Origin: Candidatus Latescibacterota bacterium
Lineage (GTDB): Bacteria; Latescibacterota; CBDEFO01
Direction of reading: 5' to 3'
Assembly: GCA_965237525.1 (NCBI GenBank)
Contig: CBDEFO010000003.1
Coordinates: 32,001-96,000 of the forward strand
Length of the DNA: 64,000 nt
A program made the translations under genes and the position numbers. This document shows positions 29,935 through 48,945 of this stretch, one piece after another (the stretch's first letter is position 1; each line of letters begins with the position of its first letter). The notes under the pieces are model-generated. The model saw nothing but the letters and a program-made list of their open reading frames with translations. It was not told the origin of the DNA and did no database searches.

Positions 29935-31453
29935 AAGCCTTGTGAAATAGTTATGTCCCAGGCAGCGTCTGAAGCGCCGATTATGGGTCAAAGAGTAGCA
30001 TATCGTATCGTTTTGCTGTGGAATAAGCAAAATAGTCTTATCAGAGTTCTGGTCAGCAAGGAACAGGAGCTGTTTGAAGAACAGGATGCACTGTCTTTGA
30101 CAGACAGGGCACACATAGACGCTTTCCCCCTTCTTATGAAAGATACAAGCCTCTTGAGATTCTGTACTGTTGCAACAAGATTCAACTGTTCATTCAGTGA
30201 GGCTGGTCCTCTGTAACGGGCTCGTCCCATACCGTATTGTTGCCTGGCTTCAGCAAAGATATGTTCACTGCGTTTACGGAGTCTCCGGGAGAGTTTGTAG
30301 TCAGCTGTTAATGAGATAGACCGTGCATGATTTCTGGCTTTCGCCTCTCGCACTTTTCTATCCCGTTCGGCCTGAATATGTGCTGAATTTGTCTTGTTTT
30401 TCCATGTAGGAATCGGTTCAATCTTCTCATCGGCTCGCAGAGGAATATGGGGTATGATTCCCCGGTCAAGTACATCAGCGATAAAATTACCAGAACCGTA
30501 ACCGGTATCGGCACTAAGTGTCTGAATGTCTTTGGGCATGGTCTATGTTTCAAGGTCATCTACCATCTTAAGGGCACTTTCGGGCTCTGCTGTCCCTGTC
30601 GCCTGCGTGCCCTGAGTCTCAAGGATTACTCTGCTTTTTGTGTCGATCAGATCATGGCCCATAAACGAGAGAAAAGCCCCTTTGCCCTTCGATTTGCTGT
30701 ATAAGCGCGCGTCGGGGTCTGTAGTCGAACGGTGTGTTTGGTTCGTCCACTTTTCACCATGAAAGTCTTTATCCTGAGGATGCCCGGACCTACCCTTTGT
30801 CTTATCACCTTCAAAACCGATTCCCTTGAGATAATCATCAAGAGAAAAAGGGGGTTCTATCGGCTCAATACTTTTCACTGAAGCATCAGCTTGTATCTGA
30901 GTGCCGTCGACACTAAGGTGTTTACCGCTCACAACACCGACATCTATGCAACACTGGACTACCTGACGCATTATCCGTTCAAACAACCCACTGGATGCCC
31001 ACTTGTGATTGCGAAGCTTGTTGATCGTGCTCCTATCCGGAACCGCATCATCAAATGTCTGATGACAAAACAACCGATATGCCGCATGCATCCCCACTTC
31101 CTGACAGAGCCGATTCTCACTCAAATTATACAGATAGCCAATAAGGATCATTCGAACAACTAATTCAGGATCAATACCGGGTCTGCCATTGTCAGGGCAA
31201 TAACAATCTGATACAACGTCTCGTACAAATGAAAAATCAACTGCCTCATCAATCTGACGAAGGATATGATCCTCGGGAACTAAATCCTCCATCTGAAAAT
31301 AGTGAAACATCGGATTTGTCTGTTCCTGCTTTTGTGGGGTCATTGTTTCCTCCATGTATAATATTATCAATAACATAATATAATACATCGGAGCTGCTTT
31401 ATCAATGCTTGTTCTATACTACTTTCTGAATCTAAGGGTTTTTCACAAGGCTT
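29935..31453 (-). mobile_element. IS1182-like insertion sequence, copy A (1519 bp)
   Basis: Terminal inverted repeats AAGCCTTGTGAAA/TTTCACAAGGCTT; TTAA duplicated on both flanks; near-identical to three other copies. Confidence 0.92.
29988..31343 (-). pseudogene. DDE transposase with premature TAG (TAC>TAG at 30543)
   Basis: Split ORFs 30543..31388 and 29988..30539; the other copies have TAC at this codon. Confidence 0.9.
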
Positions 31454-42447: not shown

Positions 42448-43035
42448 CTACCAGTAAATATAGCGGGTCAGTTTCCGTAAATCCTCTCGAGGAAGTTTTT
42501 CAAGATCGGGAATTACGTAGCGATTATCGAGGACATCCAGAAGAATCTTGCCTTTATCGCCGTGATCTTGAGTCTTATTGTGCTGCCAGAGCATCTCAAA
42601 CTGTCTTCTGCCACTTTCGTGGCTTGTTTGCTCCCCATCAAAGCGGCCGCGCCGCCCCTGCTGTGTCTCCGCATCGAAAAAGAGGAGTCCATATTTCCAT
42701 TCTACGTTGTAAATCTTTGTTATTTCATACTCAAAGTAGTGACGCGATAAGGACTCAAGGAGGAGTTCCTCAGCCTCCCTTGAAAAGGGTTTAGGGTCTA
42801 TTATAACCCCTATCTCATTTTCTTTATTGTTCTCGTCGTGATAACGCAGAGAAATATAACGATCAGGAGAGGACACGGGAAAGGCCAAGACAGCAAAGAC
42901 CCCTCTGTAGAGTTCTCCCTGACCATCCTCATCCTTGACGTGGGTGTGAAGAAGACTGAAGATGCCCTTGAAAATTTCGCAGTTTTCGGGGGTTAGTATG
43001 TACACCCCCGTCCTCGGTCGGTGGCTTTCTATCAT
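42448..43035 (-). CDS. DUF1854-like protein
   Basis: AFPVSSPDRYISL..EIGVI..EITKI..DNRYVIPD; located downstream of the associated ABC transporter. Confidence 0.7.
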   Translation of the reverse strand: MIESHRPRTGVYILTPENCEIFKGIFSLLHTHVKDEDGQGELYRGVFAVLAFPVSSPDRYISLRYHDENNKENEIGVIIDPKPFSREAEELLLESLSRHYFEYEITKIYNVEWKYGLLFFDAETQQGRRGRFDGEQTSHESGRRQFEMLWQHNKTQDHGDKGKILLDVLDNRYVIPDLEKLPREDLRKLTRYIYW

Positions 43036-43061
43036 CTCCCTTTTTCTCCGATTCTTTGGTC

Positions 43062-45293
43062 TTAATCAGATTCAATAGCCGCAAGCTCAGTCTGGATTCG
43101 AACCAATCTACTGTAGATGCCCTCCTTTGCCATAAGTTCATCGTGATTGCCGTGTTCGGCTAATGTCCCGTCGTCTATGACGTAGATACGATCGGCACCT
43201 CTTAAAGTGGAGAGTCTGTGAGCAATAGCTATGGTCGTACGACCTTTGGAAAGGACCGCTAAAGCCTCCTGTATCTGTCGCTCCGACTCTGTATCCACGC
43301 TGGAGGTGGCTTCGTCCAGAATAAGGATGGCGGGATCGCAGAGAAGGGCGCGAGCGATTGAAACGCGCTGACGCTCTCCCCCTGAAAGCCCCGATCCTCT
43401 TTCCCCCAACATAGTGTCGTATCCGGATGGGAGACGCATAATAAAGTCGTGGGCGTTGGCGGCTTTGGCAGCGTTTATTATCTCCTCCGGAGTTGCGCCC
43501 GGCTTGCTGTAGGCGATGTTTTCCGCCACGCTTGCCCGGATCAGAAAAGGCTCCTGGAGCACAAGCCCAACGTGGCTTCTGAGGTCATGACTTGATACGT
43601 CTCTTACATCCTTGCCGTCTATGCGCACGGAGCCCTCCTGCACATCGTAAAATCTGCACAAAAGGTTTATGAGCGTAGTCTTGCCGCTTCCGCTCTTGCC
43701 CACTATTCCTATCATCGCTCCTGACTCTATGGAGATGGAGACACCTTTTATAACGGGACTGTAGGGATCGTATCCGAAGACGACGTCGTCAAATTCTATG
43801 TCGCCTTTGACCTCCGGCATAGGTTCGGCATCTGGATCGTCTTTGATTCCTGGTTCTGTATCTAATATCTCAAAGATGCGCTGGCTTGAAGTCATAAAGG
43901 ACGTCAGCCAGTTGGAAAAGAACGTAAGTCTGGATAGGGGACTGTAGAACATCCCTATGTAACCTAAAAACGCCATCAGGGTCCCCAGCGTTATCTTATC
44001 CCCGAGGACGTCTTTTCCGCCGACGTACCATACGATGAGTCCACCGAGACTGAATACAAAAGCCATCATAGGGTAGAACGTCCCACTGCTCATTTCCACT
44101 TTACGGCTGCTATCCCTCAGATAGCCGATTCTATTTAGAAAGCGACTCTTTTCCCTGTCTTCCTGGGCAAACGCCTTGACCAGACGGATCCCGGAGAGGA
44201 CGCCGTACAGCATCGAGGAAAACTTAGACCGGCTGTCCCTGATCTTGAATTGTTTGGGATAGATGTATCGCCAGAAGACTACCGTCCCAAGTATGACGAA
44301 CGGGATGGGGATCAATATGTAGAAAGCAAGGCTCGCATTGAGATGAAAGAGCATCCCTCCTATGGCAAAGATAAGGATTATATTGACGAGGAACCCCTGA
44401 GTTGCTTGATCTATAAATCCCCGCAGTTCCTCTACATCCTGACTTACGCGGCTCATTAAGTCTCCCGCCTGCATCTTGTCGTAGTAGTCCACGGACATCC
44501 TCTGGAGCTTGTCAAAAAGCTGTCTCCTGACATCGTATGCAATCTGCGTCCCCACCTTGCTCGAAAGGCGGTTTATGAGGATATTTACAGAGTTTCTGAA
44601 AACATGCGCCCCGGCCAGCGCCGCCACTATGAGCAGTAGCCACTCCGTGTGAGTCTGCTCTGTCAGAACGTCATCTACCAGTATCTTCGTCAAATATGGA
44701 GGGAGCATATCCATACCGACTCCTGCAAACACCAACAGGAAAAGGACAATTGCCCACATCAGGTGTCCCCGCATCATCTTTATGATCCTGAACAGAACCG
44801 CTCCCTGCTTTATGCATTTCGGACAGGGAGCGTTAGGATCGGGAAGCGTTAAGCCACATTCGGGACAGACATTTGGATCGGGTGCAAGCAGAGCCTCCTT
44901 TTGAATATCCCTGTTATCTTTGAGACGTTTAAGCTGTGAAAGGACCCTACCGAATCGCTCCCGATAGCCGTTGGAGAAGCGAACCAGATCCAGGTGAAGG
45001 CCGTCCACTGAAGTCTGAAGGCAGGTACTCCCCACAGTGCTTCGAAGTTTAAAGTTCTCTGTCTCTTTGAACTTGAAGGGTCCGACTATGGGAACTTCTG
45101 GGGATTCTGCTATAGCGGCCACGTGTTCCGAGGTAGCCACAAGCCAGACGCAGGTCATCTGGCCGTGCTGGCTGAGGTCTCCCTCTGCGGCGATAAGGAT
45201 GTCGTCCTCTTTAATCTGGGCTTGGTCGAGGCGCTTCCGGATGGCCTTGGGGATTCCATCTTGAGAAGAGAGGACTATAAGATCGTTGTTCAT
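43062..45293 (-). CDS. ABC transporter, fused permease/ATP-binding protein with N-terminal CxxC..CxxC extension
   Basis: Walker A GKSGSGKT, LSGGERQR, ILILDEATS; six TM segments. Confidence 0.93.
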   Translation of the reverse strand: MNNDLIVLSSQDGIPKAIRKRLDQAQIKEDDILIAAEGDLSQHGQMTCVWLVATSEHVAAIAESPEVPIVGPFKFKETENFKLRSTVGSTCLQTSVDGLHLDLVRFSNGYRERFGRVLSQLKRLKDNRDIQKEALLAPDPNVCPECGLTLPDPNAPCPKCIKQGAVLFRIIKMMRGHLMWAIVLFLLVFAGVGMDMLPPYLTKILVDDVLTEQTHTEWLLLIVAALAGAHVFRNSVNILINRLSSKVGTQIAYDVRRQLFDKLQRMSVDYYDKMQAGDLMSRVSQDVEELRGFIDQATQGFLVNIILIFAIGGMLFHLNASLAFYILIPIPFVILGTVVFWRYIYPKQFKIRDSRSKFSSMLYGVLSGIRLVKAFAQEDREKSRFLNRIGYLRDSSRKVEMSSGTFYPMMAFVFSLGGLIVWYVGGKDVLGDKITLGTLMAFLGYIGMFYSPLSRLTFFSNWLTSFMTSSQRIFEILDTEPGIKDDPDAEPMPEVKGDIEFDDVVFGYDPYSPVIKGVSISIESGAMIGIVGKSGSGKTTLINLLCRFYDVQEGSVRIDGKDVRDVSSHDLRSHVGLVLQEPFLIRASVAENIAYSKPGATPEEIINAAKAANAHDFIMRLPSGYDTMLGERGSGLSGGERQRVSIARALLCDPAILILDEATSSVDTESERQIQEALAVLSKGRTTIAIAHRLSTLRGADRIYVIDDGTLAEHGNHDELMAKEGIYSRLVRIQTELAAIESD

Positions 45294-45558
45294 TTTTTTA
45301 TTCTTGTCCCTATTAAAAAACAGTTTCGCACATAACCCGTCGGGGAACTCCCAATGTAGGATAGTTCCCTACTTTGTGCCGAAACTGTCAAATTAACGCA
45401 AACAAAACAATATGTTGGTGAATTTCTAGCCGACAATTAATATGAAAATTAAGCAAAAGTCGTCTCTTCGTCAAGCTGAAAGTGCAGATAGACTTAAAAT
45501 TGGTAATACAGAACACAGACAGTTCAAACTTTAGATCTCAATACCAGCAGTCGCATTA

Positions 45559-45775
45559 TTACTGAAAATGAACGATCTTTGAGAATGACTCGGGGTCAAG
45601 TGAGGCTCCTCCTAACAGCCCGCCGTCTATATTATCCTTCTCCATCAAGTCCGATATATTATCAGGTTTGACAGAGCCGCCGTATATTATTCTCACGGAG
45701 TCGGATGTACAGCTATCGTACATGTCCAAGCAATACCTTATGCAGGAGTGCACCTCCTCGGCCTGTTGGGGCATC
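45559..45775 (-). pseudogene. tpiA: Duplicated 3' fragment of tpiA
   Basis: PQQAEEVHS...[11 protein letters not shown]...[17 protein letters not shown]; a diverged copy of about 48946-49165. Confidence 0.9.
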
Positions 45776-46218
45776 GCTCCCCTGTTATAATCCATCAGGG
45801 ATTCAAAGAGAATTTTCAGTAGGTGGAAAGCTTCGGCCGTTAGGTCGGAGCTTTTACATTTGGTGTTACCTATATGCTCCACCACATAAAATGCTAACTG
45901 ACAGCCGACTGGGAGACGAAATTGTTACTTGCTGCCTTGGAAAAGCTTCCGCTTTCGACAAGATCACAGAAGATCTTCAGACTCTCTGGAAGCATCTTTA
46001 GGTGCGAATTCCAATATGAAATGTACAGTGCCGTCATATTTTCATAATGAAATATTTCTATTGCATTGCGCATCTACAAGCGCGGTATAACTCGATATTC
46101 AGGCGATCACTATAAGTAAACTAAAAGGCTGTAACTCTATGTTATTACACTATTTACTCTGACGAGATATGAGGACTTTAATATGACCTTTTACGATTAG
46201 AGGTTGCTGTTCAACTGT

Positions 46219-46234
46219 TGGCACAAATGTTGCA
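46219..46234 (+). promoter_or_regulatory. Sigma54 (RpoN) -24/-12 promoter
   Basis: TGGCAC-AAATG-TTGCA, an exact consensus match about 16 nt upstream of the first repeat unit. Confidence 0.75.
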
Positions 46235-46305
46235 CTAATACTATTATGAACGGCACGAAACACAGACAATTCAAACTTTAAATCATATAAGGGAGGTGAA
46301 AGACC

Positions 46306-46401
46306 GTGAAATTACTAATGCTGATAGAAGGTATAAGTCTGATTGTGGCAGTAGCAGCGTTTGAGATGTATGCCTACAACAGCCTCGCTGCCCTGTTCTA
46401 A
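46306..46401 (+). CDS. 31-aa hydrophobic peptide, copy 1 (MKLLMLIEGISLIVAVAAFEMYAYNSLAALF)
   Basis: Strong RBS GGAGGTG, GTG start, TAA stop; ORF conserved in all repeat units. Confidence 0.7.
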   Translation: MKLLMLIEGISLIVAVAAFEMYAYNSLAALF

Positions 46402-46491
46402 CCCATCAGGGTTGTAGATTGCTGAAATATTATTGAGCGGCACGAAACACAGACAATTCAACTTTAAATCATATAAGAGAGGTGAAAGACC

Positions 46492-46587
46492 GTGAAATTA
46501 CTAATGCTGATAGAAGGTATAAGTCTGATTGTGGCAGTAGCAGCGTTTGAGATGTATGCCTACAACAGCCTCGCTGCCCTGTTCTAA
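46492..46587 (+). CDS. 31-aa hydrophobic peptide, copy 2
   Basis: Identical ORF; RBS AGAGGTG. Confidence 0.7.
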   Translation: MKLLMLIEGISLIVAVAAFEMYAYNSLAALF

Positions 46588-46677
46588 CCCATCAGGGTTG
46601 TAGATTGCTGAAATATTATTGAGCGGCACGAAACACAGACAATTCAACTTTAAATCATATAAGGGAGGTGAAAGACC

Positions 46678-46773
46678 GTGAAATTACTAATGCTGATAGA
46701 AGGTATAAGTCTGATTGTGGCAGTAGCAGCGTTTGAGATGTATGCCTACAACAGCCTCGCTGCCCTGTTCTAA
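46678..46773 (+). CDS. 31-aa hydrophobic peptide, copy 3
   Basis: Identical ORF; RBS GGAGGTG. Confidence 0.7.
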   Translation: MKLLMLIEGISLIVAVAAFEMYAYNSLAALF

Positions 46774-46884
46774 CCGATCAGGGTTGTAGATTGCCCAATA
46801 TTATTGAGCGGCACGAAACACAGACAATTCAACTTTAAATCGTATAAGAGAGGTGAAAGACTGTGACAACTGTGACATTACTAA

Positions 46885-48403
46885 AAGCCTTGTGAAATAG
46901 TTATGTCCCAGGCAGCGTCTGAAGCGCCGATTATGGGTCAAAGAGTAGCATATCGTATCGTTTTGCTGTGGAATAAGCAAAATAGTCTTATCAGAGTTCT
47001 GGTCAGCAAGGAACAGGAGCTGTTTGAAGAACAGGATGCACTGTCTTTGACAGACAGGGCACACATAGACGCTTTCCCCCTTCTTATGAAAGATACAAGC
47101 CTCTTGAGATTCTGTACTGTTGCAACAAGATTCAACTGTTCATTCAGTGAGGCTGGTCCTCTATAACGGGCTCGTCCCATACCGTGTTGTTGCCTGGCTT
47201 CAGCAAAGATATGTTCACTGCGTTTACGGAGTCTCCGGGAGAGTTTGTAGTCAGCTGTTAATGAGATAGACCGTGCATGATTTCTGGCTTTCGCCTCTCG
47301 CACTTTTCTATCCCGTTCGGCCTGAATATGTGCTGAATTTGTCTTGTTTTTCCATGTAGGAATCGGTTCAATCTTCTCATCGGCTCGCAGAGGAATATGG
47401 GGTATGATTCCCCGGTCAAGTACATCAGCGATAAAATTACCAGAACCGTAACCGGTATCGGCACTAAGTGTCTGAATGTCTTTGGGCATGGTGTATGTTT
47501 CAAGGTCATCTACCATCTTAAGGGCACTTTCGGGCTCTGCTGTCCCTGTCGCCTGCGTGCCCTGAGTCTCAAGGATTACTCTGCTTTTTGTGTCGATCAG
47601 ATCATGGCCCATAAACGAGAGAAAAGCCCCTTTGCCCTTCGATTTGCTGTATAAGCGCGCGTCGGGGTCTGTAGTCGAACGGTGTGTTTGGTTCGTCCAC
47701 TTTTCACCATGAAAGTCTTTATCCTGAGGATGCCCGGACCTACCCTTTGTCTTATCACCTTCAAAACCGATTCCCTTGAGATAATCATCAAGAGAAACAG
47801 GGGGTTCTATCGGCTCAATACTTTTCACTGAAGCATCAGCTTGTATCTGAGTGCCGTCGACACTAAGGTGTTTACCGCTCACAAGACCGACATCTATGCA
47901 ACACTGGACTACCTGACGCATTATCCGTTCAAACAACCCACTGGATGCCCACTTGTGATTGCGAAGCTTGTTGATCGTGCTCCTATCCGGAACCGCATCA
48001 TCAAATGTCTGATGACAAAACAACCGATATGCCGCATGCATCCCCACTTCCTGACAGAGCCGATTCTCACTCAAATTATACAGATAGCCAATAAGGATCA
48101 TTCGAACAACTAATTCAGGATCAATACCGGGTCTGCCATTGTCAGGGCAATAACAATCTGATACAACGTCTCGTACAAATGAAAAATCAACTGCCTCATC
48201 AATCTGACGAAGGATATGATCCTCGGGAACTAAATCCTCCATCTGAAAATAGTGAAACATCGGATTTGTCTGTTCCTGCTTTTGTGGGGTCATTGTTTCC
48301 TCCATGTATAATATTATCAATAACATAATATAATACATCGGAGCTGCTTTATCAATGCTTGTTCTATACTACTTTCTGAATCTAAGGGTTTTTCACAAGG
48401 CTT
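46885..48403 (-). mobile_element. IS1182-like insertion sequence, copy B (1519 bp)
   Basis: Same TIRs; CTAA duplicated; the empty target (ATTA-CTAA-TGCTG) is visible in the neighbouring repeat units. Confidence 0.95.
46938..48293 (-). CDS. IS1182-family DDE transposase
   Basis: LVPEDHILR, GRPGIDP, VPDRSTI, VDGTQIQADAS, STTDPDAR, ADTGY, RSEHIFAEAR; start MTPQ after GGAGG. Confidence 0.9.
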   Translation of the reverse strand: MTPQKQEQTNPMFHYFQMEDLVPEDHILRQIDEAVDFSFVRDVVSDCYCPDNGRPGIDPELVVRMILIGYLYNLSENRLCQEVGMHAAYRLFCHQTFDDAVPDRSTINKLRNHKWASSGLFERIMRQVVQCCIDVGLVSGKHLSVDGTQIQADASVKSIEPIEPPVSLDDYLKGIGFEGDKTKGRSGHPQDKDFHGEKWTNQTHRSTTDPDARLYSKSKGKGAFLSFMGHDLIDTKSRVILETQGTQATGTAEPESALKMVDDLETYTMPKDIQTLSADTGYGSGNFIADVLDRGIIPHIPLRADEKIEPIPTWKNKTNSAHIQAERDRKVREAKARNHARSISLTADYKLSRRLRKRSEHIFAEARQQHGMGRARYRGPASLNEQLNLVATVQNLKRLVSFIRRGKASMCALSVKDSASCSSNSSCSLLTRTLIRLFCLFHSKTIRYATL

Positions 48404-48523
48404 CTAATGCTGATAGAAGGTATAAGTCTGATTGTGTGTACATCGTGTATGGTGTATGTCAACAGCAACATCGTTGCCCTGTTTTAATCCCTCAGGGATT
48501 CAAAGAGGATTTTCAGTAGGTGG

Positions 48524-48552
48524 AAAGCTTCGGCCTTTAGGTCGGAGTTTTT
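48524..48552 (+). terminator. Rho-independent terminator-like hairpin closing the peptide array
   Basis: AAAGCTTCGGCC-TTTA-GGTCGGAGTTTTT; a second copy lies at about 45827-45855. Confidence 0.6.
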
Positions 48553-48566
48553 ACATTTGGTGTTAC

Positions 48567-48931
48567 CTATATACTCCACCACAGAAAATATGGATAATCA
48601 ACAATTAGATTGTAAATGAAGCCTACCACTATTCCCAGTATCACAAAAGCCGCTACTCCCGATATGAATCCTGCGGGCTTTCCGAATCTGTTGGTGACCT
48701 TAGATACAATTTTTATCTGTCCAAGAATACTACCACTCCCGGAAGAAAGAGAAAAACCCGTTCAGAGGCTGTACACCACGGACAATTCGGTGTCTGAGGA
48801 TGGTTGATATTACAGCAAGACACTGCCCCTGACCAGAGCCAGGTGCATCCGCACCTGAAGATAAACACGCACAACGGAGTAATAAAGACTAAAGTGAAGA
48901 CACCCCAGAATAACTTTTCTATAACTGTCAT
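48567..48931 (-). CDS. Small Cys-rich membrane protein, apparently frameshifted near 48720
   Basis: CxxIFRCGCTW...CCN...CPWC; the alternative frame continues with a TM segment ending DYPYFLWWSI*; directly downstream of tpiA. Confidence 0.5.
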
Positions 48932-48945
48932 CCGCGCAGGTCGCC

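Follow-up and report, generated by a model that had tools for sequence, protein, structure and literature searches.

A genus-restricted, multi-locus family of short hydrophobic ORFs, probably coding for membrane peptides, with a tandem array in Candidatus Latescibacterota

Introduction

Most small membrane proteins that have been studied are single-copy, conserved and come from model organisms. A precedent for a physical action on the membrane is the stress-induced Escherichia coli small membrane protein YohP, which has no antitoxin according to the part of PMC12719787 that treats it. The Arp1-3 peptides, hydrophobic products of random libraries without evolutionary history, enter the membrane and lower its potential, as the relevant section of PMC6550523 describes. 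For type I toxin-antitoxin systems, one portion of PMC8594479 stresses sequestration of the Shine-Dalgarno (SD) sequence. Here we describe a family of short open reading frames (ORFs) that came to notice through a tandem array in a 64,000-nt stretch of a Candidatus Latescibacterota genome. This whole stretch is the window, and its coordinates are used below; the genome holding it is designated G000, and its sister genome of the same genus G001. Small membrane proteins and tandem amplification are already known; what is new is an orphan multi-locus family, younger than the promoters it follows and conserved in shape only. A literature search, which did not cover supplements, returned nothing on this peptide family and nothing joining Latescibacterota with a small protein.

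Results

The array and its family

The array begins at a sigma54 -24/-12 consensus (TGGCAC-N5-TTGC; 46219..46233, plus strand), with a transcription start predicted near 46245. Units of 187, 186 and 185 bp follow, and the program TRF reports a period of 186 and 3.4 copies with 97% matches. ORF 1 (46306..46401, plus strand; 31 aa, GTG start, SD at 46289-46298), ORF 2 (46492..46587, plus strand) and ORF 3 (46678..46773, plus strand) have identical translations, and each is preceded by the SD sequence AAG(G/A)GAGGTG; units differ pairwise at 2 to 5 positions, all outside the ORFs. ORF 4 is a divergent paralogue with three extra N-terminal codons (MTTVTLL...). An insertion sequence (IS) breaks its frame after codon 7, leaving a 5' part (46863..46884, plus strand; 7 codons) and a 3' part (48404..48487, plus strand); an intact 33-aa orthologue lies in G001 at L002:1388-1489, minus strand. 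A stem-loop with a T-rich tail (48516..48557, plus strand) is the predicted terminator that closes the array.

A first-pass annotation, made by a model from the sequence alone, had claimed most of this architecture. The sigma54 consensus is where it was claimed, and unit lengths, TRF and translation bear out the four-unit array with three identical GTG-start ORFs and strong SDs. The divergent, IS-interrupted fourth ORF is likewise present and is here refined to a start at 46863, a split after codon 7 and a CTAA duplication. The claimed terminator hairpin stands in part: its region is more stably folded than every one of 200 shuffles (z = -3.49), but a simple scan for terminators did not report the hairpin. 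Tandem amplification is real, with 4 units in G000 against 2 at the same locus in G001. Beyond that annotation, we find mosaic DNA upstream of the array (45500-45995) and five paralogues elsewhere in G000.

Nucleotide and protein profiles place nine family copies at four loci in G000: the window array (4), a locus divergent from a LysR gene on contig C8 (3), a serpin locus (1) and an extracytoplasmic function (ECF) sigma factor locus (1). The serpin-locus copy precedes two serpin lipoprotein genes and the ECF-locus copy precedes an ECF sigma/anti-sigma operon. G001 holds five copies at the same four loci, including the intact orthologue of the IS-split unit. The family thus totals 14 copies of 31-33 codons each, in two genomes of one genus. 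Homology searches of related genomes recovered it in G001 only and linked it to no known family. An nhmmer search of G000 found no additional degenerate full copies, and a profile search of the 166 other genomes of the phylum, many of them incomplete, found no member, its two weak matches being unrelated on inspection. A pattern search of genome contigs gave four matches, all in G001; the metagenome pattern search gave none, and a metagenome scan using the neighbouring beta-barrel gene confirmed none of 113 candidates. The viral profile search confirmed none of 17, a looser viral pattern gave nine matches, none with an SD and a family-like ORF, and tblastn against phages and plasmids gave no match.

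ORFs of this length are usually skipped by gene callers, so blanks in protein databases are weak evidence. Among 1.84 billion protein representatives there were seven matches, the best being the serpin-locus paralogue from G000 itself; of the others, four were inspected and are unrelated repeat proteins, and two long ones were not inspected. None of eight exact peptide sequences was in the protein collection. Pfam and PADLOC gave no hit, the best NCBIfam match had E = 0.0046 in 2 of 10 members, and the best PHROG match had E = 0.11. The first-pass description of a small hydrophobic membrane peptide of no known family is supported in that the ORF is likely translated, a single helix is predicted and no profile matches.

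Several candidate identities and origins were set aside. Flp pilin, KdpF and an integron cassette were considered on the strength of motifs; the first two have no profile match, and the scanned neighbours include no integrase. Duplication of the downstream signal-peptide ORF was rejected because the alignment does not score above background (46% of 1,228 gene starts do as well), and retro-copying of the cassette was dropped as no reverse transcriptase was found in G000. LysR and ABC homologue loci in other families have unrelated divergent genes and no peptide.

Coding character of the ORFs

Of the six reading frames, only the peptide frame is open in all 11 aligned rows. The position of the stop is constant while the codon itself swaps among TAA, TAG and TGA. 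Indels inside the ORF are of 3, 3 and 9 nt, and most of those in the leader are not multiples of 3. When neutral evolution is simulated along the family tree, the joint probability that the frame stays open, the stop is kept and hydrophobicity persists is 0.0003-0.003; in open-frame simulations, so few D/E/K/R/P at residues 10-31 has a chance of at most 0.017 for all five roots. The stop swaps, the in-frame indels and the exclusion of charged residues and proline from the helix make the ORF likely coding, and we consider its translation highly probable. Conserved RNA structure was not found (consensus energy -1.43 kcal/mol; single-unit z = -0.15), and Rfam gave no match at threshold. A structured non-coding RNA was also rejected: the sole Rfam match (E = 2.7) lies inside the IS and is due to chance.

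The ratio of non-synonymous to synonymous substitution rates (dN/dS) peaks at 1.5-2 for the family, and values of 0.7 or less fit clearly worse. On five lineage representatives it is 1.96, which rejects the background of 0.34 at p = 8e-10, the background being that of G000 against G001 over 6,216 codons (L016, L064, L066 and L067 against G000). The excess over 1 is marginal (p = 0.025-0.047). The start codon is left out of these alignments, as are a single codon inserted in both serpin rows and, in one row, three codons at the N-terminus. Since dN/dS is high while frame and helix character are kept, length and hydrophobicity appear to be held and residue identity mostly not. The selection on the peptide suggested by the first-pass annotation thus holds for frame, length and hydrophobicity and does not extend to the residue sequence, for which dN/dS is 1 or more.

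The best 19-residue hydropathy is 2.0-2.4 in 10 of 11 rows and 1.41 in the remaining one. The structure model is one helix spanning residues 2-30 (pLDDT 94), and the product is predicted to be a single hydrophobic helix inserted in the inner membrane. Its amphipathic moment is low and no helical face is conserved (P = 0.62); the invariant residues are M5, L12 and Y22. The C-termini are hydrophobic, ending in LF or LL, with no charged or polar cluster, and neither a GG nor a Cys is conserved in the alignment. When the serpin-locus peptide was modelled in complex with the kinase dimer (residues 15-270), the score was 0.00, which by the rule of the tool counts neither way.

Promoters ahead of the copies

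The serpin-locus copy comes after genes for a kinase, an enhancer-binding response regulator, a coiled-coil protein and a beta-barrel protein. This module occupies L068:3651-9017 (G000:C8:327650-333019) and occurs also in L070-L075, L087, L089 and L090. Among barrel-gene loci of the phylum a sigma54 consensus lies downstream in 8 of 30, and all eight carry the palindrome TCAGAWWTCTGA upstream of it, usually paired. As all eight have the palindrome, and as it occurs exactly once in G000, TCAGAWWTCTGA is likely the site of the activator, that is, of the enhancer-binding regulator. In six barrel loci from other families the next gene, mostly secreted-looking, lies about 40-65 nt past the promoter with no peptide ORF between. 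In three of these six it begins MKRMLL, and in this genus a 27-codon ORF beginning MKRMLL comes after the peptide. This ORF (L011:1659-1742) resembles the signal peptide of the first gene there in family f13 (L087, L089, L090); it is likely the stump of a deleted gene, retained in both genomes.

Upstream of the ECF gene, a motif AAC-N15/17-GTC, which we take to be an ECF-type promoter, is found at 18 of 30 loci (L034-L063), against a background of 0.033 per window. It is likely an autoregulatory promoter of this sigma group. In the 16 loci from other families 46-163 nt separate the motif from the gene; in this genus, with the cassette lying between, the distance is 203-204 nt. Compared with G001, the ECF sigma gene of G000 (L013:1552-2194) carries a frameshift of one base close to its 5' end.

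At both the serpin and the ECF locus, a cassette of 120-150 nt comprising leader, SD and ORF separates the conserved promoter motif from the gene that elsewhere is directly downstream, and the peptide ORF is the first cistron, with 17-30 nt separating it from the ORF that follows. Most simply read, this genus acquired the cassette immediately behind promoters older than the cassette itself. Of 168 genomes of the phylum, 96 have the kinase and 2 the peptide. At two loci the copies are followed by terminators and unrelated genes. The serpin-locus copy alone sits, by position, under the two-component promoter, with the palindrome pair and sigma54 element beside the kinase and activator. In families f7 and f13 (L132-L145) the LysR homologue is divergent, in 13 of 14 loci, from what is presumably an acetyl-CoA carboxylase beta-subunit gene.

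The window locus as a recombination mosaic

In G001 the locus reads ABC transporter, two units, terminator, 126-aa ORF and tpiA. In G000 the order ahead of the array is old leader, tpiA 3' fragment, second terminator copy, LysR 5' fragment and sigma54 segment. The remnant 5' leader of the original first unit (45500..45540, plus strand) runs in G001 directly into an intact ORF. It is followed by the tpiA 3' fragment (45540..45771, minus strand), which differs from resident tpiA by 10 synonymous and 5 non-synonymous changes in 53 codons, and by a duplicate of the 3' end of the last unit with its terminator hairpin (45772..45892, plus strand; 93% identical to 48469-48589). The LysR regulator gene 5' fragment (45891..45995, minus strand; 33 codons) is homologous to the LysR gene of the C8 peptide locus, its differences being about even at 5-6 synonymous versus 5-6 non-synonymous. 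The tpiA and LysR fragments match the resident genes of neither G000 nor G001. As the differences in the tpiA fragment are mostly synonymous, it likely comes from a related lineage.

At 46040..46052 lies a palindrome, TTTCAT-A-ATGAAA, of the T-N11-A form and also in the C8 copy, which we take to be a LysR box. A promoter-proximal motif, CCTTTTACG (46187..46195, plus strand), has counterparts at the serpin and C8 LysR sigma54 promoters. The window sigma54 segment is 88% identical to that of the C8 LysR locus and is lacking in G001. Exact matches to TGGCAC-N5-TTGC number 20 in G000 against about 8 expected from composition; the genome encodes rpoN and 12 enhancer-binding proteins, and the GG-N10-GC form of the -24/-12 element is present in the window. 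The imported promoter retains this element and the proximal motif shared with the serpin promoter. The first-pass picture of an enhancer-controlled array lacks support in that form on two counts: the paired TCAGAWWTCTGA palindrome, the enhancer-like feature of the homologous promoter, is absent upstream of the window copy, and sigma54 control is not intrinsic to the family, another copy lying behind an ECF-type promoter and G001 lacking the window's sigma54 segment.

Units 2 and 3 combine the leader of the second unit with the ORF of the first, and both leader types are present in G001. Unequal crossing-over would account for the structure of the array, and the adaptive increase in dosage that the first-pass annotation had in mind is putative and not needed to explain it.

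The element in ORF 4 is of the IS5/IS1182 type (46885..48403, minus strand; 1,519 bp), with a transposase gene (46938-48338), terminal inverted repeats and a flanking 4-bp CTAA target duplication. G000 holds 127 full copies of it, 94 of them with a target duplication of TTAA, TTAG or CTAA; the insertion is ordinary for this genome and says nothing special about the array locus. The same IS occurs four times in the window (29935, 46885, 57622 and 62569), the copy at 29935 with a split transposase. The high background dN/dS (0.34) and the IS expansion together suggest weak purifying selection in this lineage.

Other observations concern the surroundings. Diverged LysR 5' fragments follow the peptide terminator in both genomes (L015:3185-3390; L003:1165-1345; L003:2020-2180) and are traces of older duplications of the LysR-peptide module. 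At 48570-48945 (minus strand) the window carries the 126-aa Cys-rich membrane ORF, without a Pfam or NCBIfam match; it is frameshifted here, either as a pseudogene or by a consensus slip, and intact after tpiA in G001. The ABC transporter and DUF1854 pair at 42448-45293 is most like a cyanophycin-associated pair, below the NCBIfam cut-off, and the N-terminal part of that transporter is matched in just 5 of 168 genomes of the phylum.

Discussion

We propose, with confidence somewhat short of even, that the family encodes a translated, sequence-tolerant membrane peptide that acts physically and in bulk on the membrane under stress, with no fixed partner. The observed base of the proposal is the family, its synteny, its copy numbers and its mosaic structure. 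Each ORF of 31-33 codons would yield one hydrophobic helix in the inner membrane. The cassette would have been gained in this genus and expressed from captured promoters that are unrelated to one another and likely respond to stress, those of the two-component/sigma54 module and of the ECF module, so that several signals would feed one product. That the peptide works by a physical effect, for example a mild fall in membrane potential or altered packing, has in our estimate close to an even chance; this mode of action is suggested by hydrophobicity and length being kept while residues turn over freely. At the window, the LysR-fragment/sigma54 segment would have recombined into an older two-unit locus, the first unit would then have multiplied by unequal crossing-over, and the IS would later have broken unit 4. 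A sigma54 promoter requires some activator site to fire; lacking the known enhancer, the window promoter is a putative one, and another of the 12 candidate activators, none of which could be assigned to it, could use a site that this analysis did not recognise. Of all parts of the proposal, the sigma54-driven array of the window carries the least certainty.

Several observations weigh against this proposal. By itself the mean-hydrophobicity test gives a weak result with two of the five roots (P = 0.11 and 0.055). Between orthologues there are 11 non-synonymous and 4 synonymous codons versus 352 and 357, an excess that is not significant (p = 0.11), and changes at codon positions 1, 2 and 3 number 43, 35 and 25 steps, the third changing least, unlike the usual coding pattern. 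A dN/dS above 1 could equally well come from a specific interaction under diversifying selection or from constrained synonymous sites, the invariant M5, L12 and Y22 may mark a specific contact, and the family is known from two genomes only, with recombination between copies distorting tree-based estimates. SD regions are predicted to be just 12-47% unpaired in 11 cases, without a stable or covarying hairpin. As for the promoters, the AAC-N15/17-GTC motif was defined after viewing these same sequences; no TCAGAWWTCTGA palindrome within 2 mismatches occurs in 45250-46300, and the palindromes upstream of the window promoter were found intact at no other sigma54-like site except the C8 copy.

A more ambitious version, which we regard as doubtful, casts the leader-SD-ORF unit of about 150 nt, which would have arisen in one genus, as a promoter-capturing cassette that acts as a multi-input OR gate for one membrane peptide, is subject to diversifying selection on the peptide sequence and has its dose set by tandem amplification that is still going on and by alleles imported from relatives. 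Its peptide would be the first cistron in several ancient envelope-stress regulons (enhancer/sigma54, ECF and LysR-divergent). If true, a de novo membrane gene would here be caught in nature on its way into regulation.

The position of the serpin-locus and ECF-locus copies could also be read in terms of a specific partner. The peptide, induced by the two-component/sigma54 or ECF module, would then be a specific regulator of a membrane protein, as MgrB and SafA are, binding a sensor kinase, an anti-sigma factor or a transporter to give feedback or cross-talk. That one copy is the first cistron after the promoter next to a kinase/enhancer-binding-protein pair, and that another follows an ECF-type promoter, fits the MgrB logic set out in part of PMC12648545, and M5, L12 and Y22 are invariant. 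However, a kinase present in 96 of 168 genomes, against two for the peptide, does not have the peptide as a core part; a binder of a fixed partner would not be expected to have a dN/dS of at least 1 and no face of its helix conserved; and terminators and unrelated genes follow the copies at two loci. We consider such a regulator unlikely. The same high dN/dS, near or above 1, together with the least variable third positions, would suit an ORF that is a passenger or a translated leader only, the RNA doing the work or the cassette being a repeat, near-neutral or selfish, that recombination has spread. Conservation extends from the ORF to the A-rich 5' leader ACAATTCAAACTTTAA, and recombination has made mosaics of the loci, in a genome rich in IS copies and with high background dN/dS. 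Against this stand the swapped stops, the indels that keep the frame and the near-absence of charged residues and proline from the helix; there is no conserved structure and no Rfam match at threshold, and no reverse transcriptase was found in G000, while G001 has two. We hold this reading to be quite unlikely.

A type I toxin of a toxin-antitoxin system is, in our judgement, decidedly unlikely. Short transmembrane ORFs in tandem within one intergenic region are a search criterion in the part of PMC2887945 devoted to finding such loci, and the family shows both tandem duplication (4 units in the window, 3 at the C8 LysR locus, 2 in G001) and a protein below 70 aa with one transmembrane segment, here a predicted helix. 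Weak minus-strand sigma70-like sites (9/12 matches) recur in units 1-3; they number 13 against 7.6 +/- 2.6 expected, a count inflated by the repeats. As to the antisense RNA that the first-pass annotation had raised, among 11 100-nt windows across 46200-46599 on both strands no structured segment (z below -2) emerges, the lowest z being -1.73 on the plus and -1.05 on the minus strand, although a trans-encoded antitoxin was not searched for. The leader is short, and sequestration of the SD gives a mixed picture, with SDs predicted to be largely paired and no conserved hairpin to hold them. The C-terminus lacks the charged or polar cluster, and two copies are not isolated from flanking genes, being first cistrons 17-30 nt ahead of the next one. 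Very unlikely, too, is a secreted signal precursor with a signal-like N-terminus that would be cut off, whose C-terminal 8-10-mer (...Y-x-x-S-x-x-x-LF) would be released in pherotype-like variants and sensed in the periplasm. The hypervariable residues between the fixed Y22 and the fixed C-terminal LF, the dN/dS above 1 and the position under a sensor-kinase promoter agree with it, as would a presumed likeness to SHP/ComS precursors. But no dedicated peptidase, exporter or RRNPP-type receptor is found among the scanned neighbours, the adjacent ABC transporter has no peptidase domain in Pfam, the kinase module occurs without the peptide in other families, and V follows Y22 in 3 of 5 lineages, which by the usual rules makes a poor signal-peptidase site. 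Finally, identical units could be an assembly expansion, or the upstream mosaic a strain chimera, and probable single-base slips nearby (the frameshifts of the 126-aa ORF and the ECF gene relative to G001) lend this some colour. It is hardly credible, given that the units hold distinct variants, that units 2 and 3 have the structure unequal crossing-over predicts, that the assembly resolves 127 near-identical 1.5-kb IS copies and that the fragments of tpiA and LysR differ from the resident genes of both genomes.

The family is young, unannotated and multi-copy; it keeps its shape while its sequence changes and stands behind promoters older than itself. If expressed, it would be a compact test case for the origin of a microprotein and its recruitment into stress regulons. 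A by-product is a candidate enhancer, the paired TCAGAWWTCTGA, with a sigma54 promoter for the two-component module; across several Latescibacterota families, module, palindrome and promoter together offer a candidate activator site and a candidate unstudied secreted-protein regulon.

The family can be compared with described systems. Pheromone precursors (SHP/ComS, AgrD and ComC) differ in that no receptor, processing or export gene was found among the neighbours scanned here and the family has no conserved GG or Cys-ring motif. The type I loci Ibs/Sib, Ldr/Rdl and Zor/Orz, as portions of PMC2887945 and PMC8594479 present them, share with the family a short hydrophobic ORF, tandem intergenic copies and neglect by gene callers. 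Unlike them, the family has no structured antisense segment and no polar C-terminus, and some of its copies are first in operons; its SD regions, predicted to be partly unpaired and without a conserved hairpin, do not clearly set it apart. MgrB, SafA and UgtS resemble it as single-helix microproteins with a promoter likely controlled by a neighbouring two-component system, in the part of PMC12648545 concerned; there, MgrB is conserved across related species and has periplasmic cysteines, whereas this family is younger than the kinase module and carries no purifying signal on its amino acids. Co-conservation with the kinase under purifying selection, as for MgrB and SafA, is not seen here (2/168 versus 96/168; dN/dS about 2), and the matching promoter arrangement is found, by position, for the serpin-locus copy and not for the window copy. 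Among ESM Atlas neighbours, E. coli YncL, YoaK and PmrR have similar length and language-model features with scores of 0.79-0.85; all are below 0.9, a range into which one shuffled sequence in three falls, so they serve as leads only and show no homology. Arp1-3 are synthetic, whereas the putative peptides of this family are natural and chromosomally encoded. YohP, in the portion of its source cited above, is alike in being about 30 aa long, with a single hydrophobic helix, no catalytic motif and a likely link to stress. It differs in that no sequence match joins the two, and in that the present family is multi-copy, tandem and genus-restricted, with a dN/dS of at least 1 and several different promoters.

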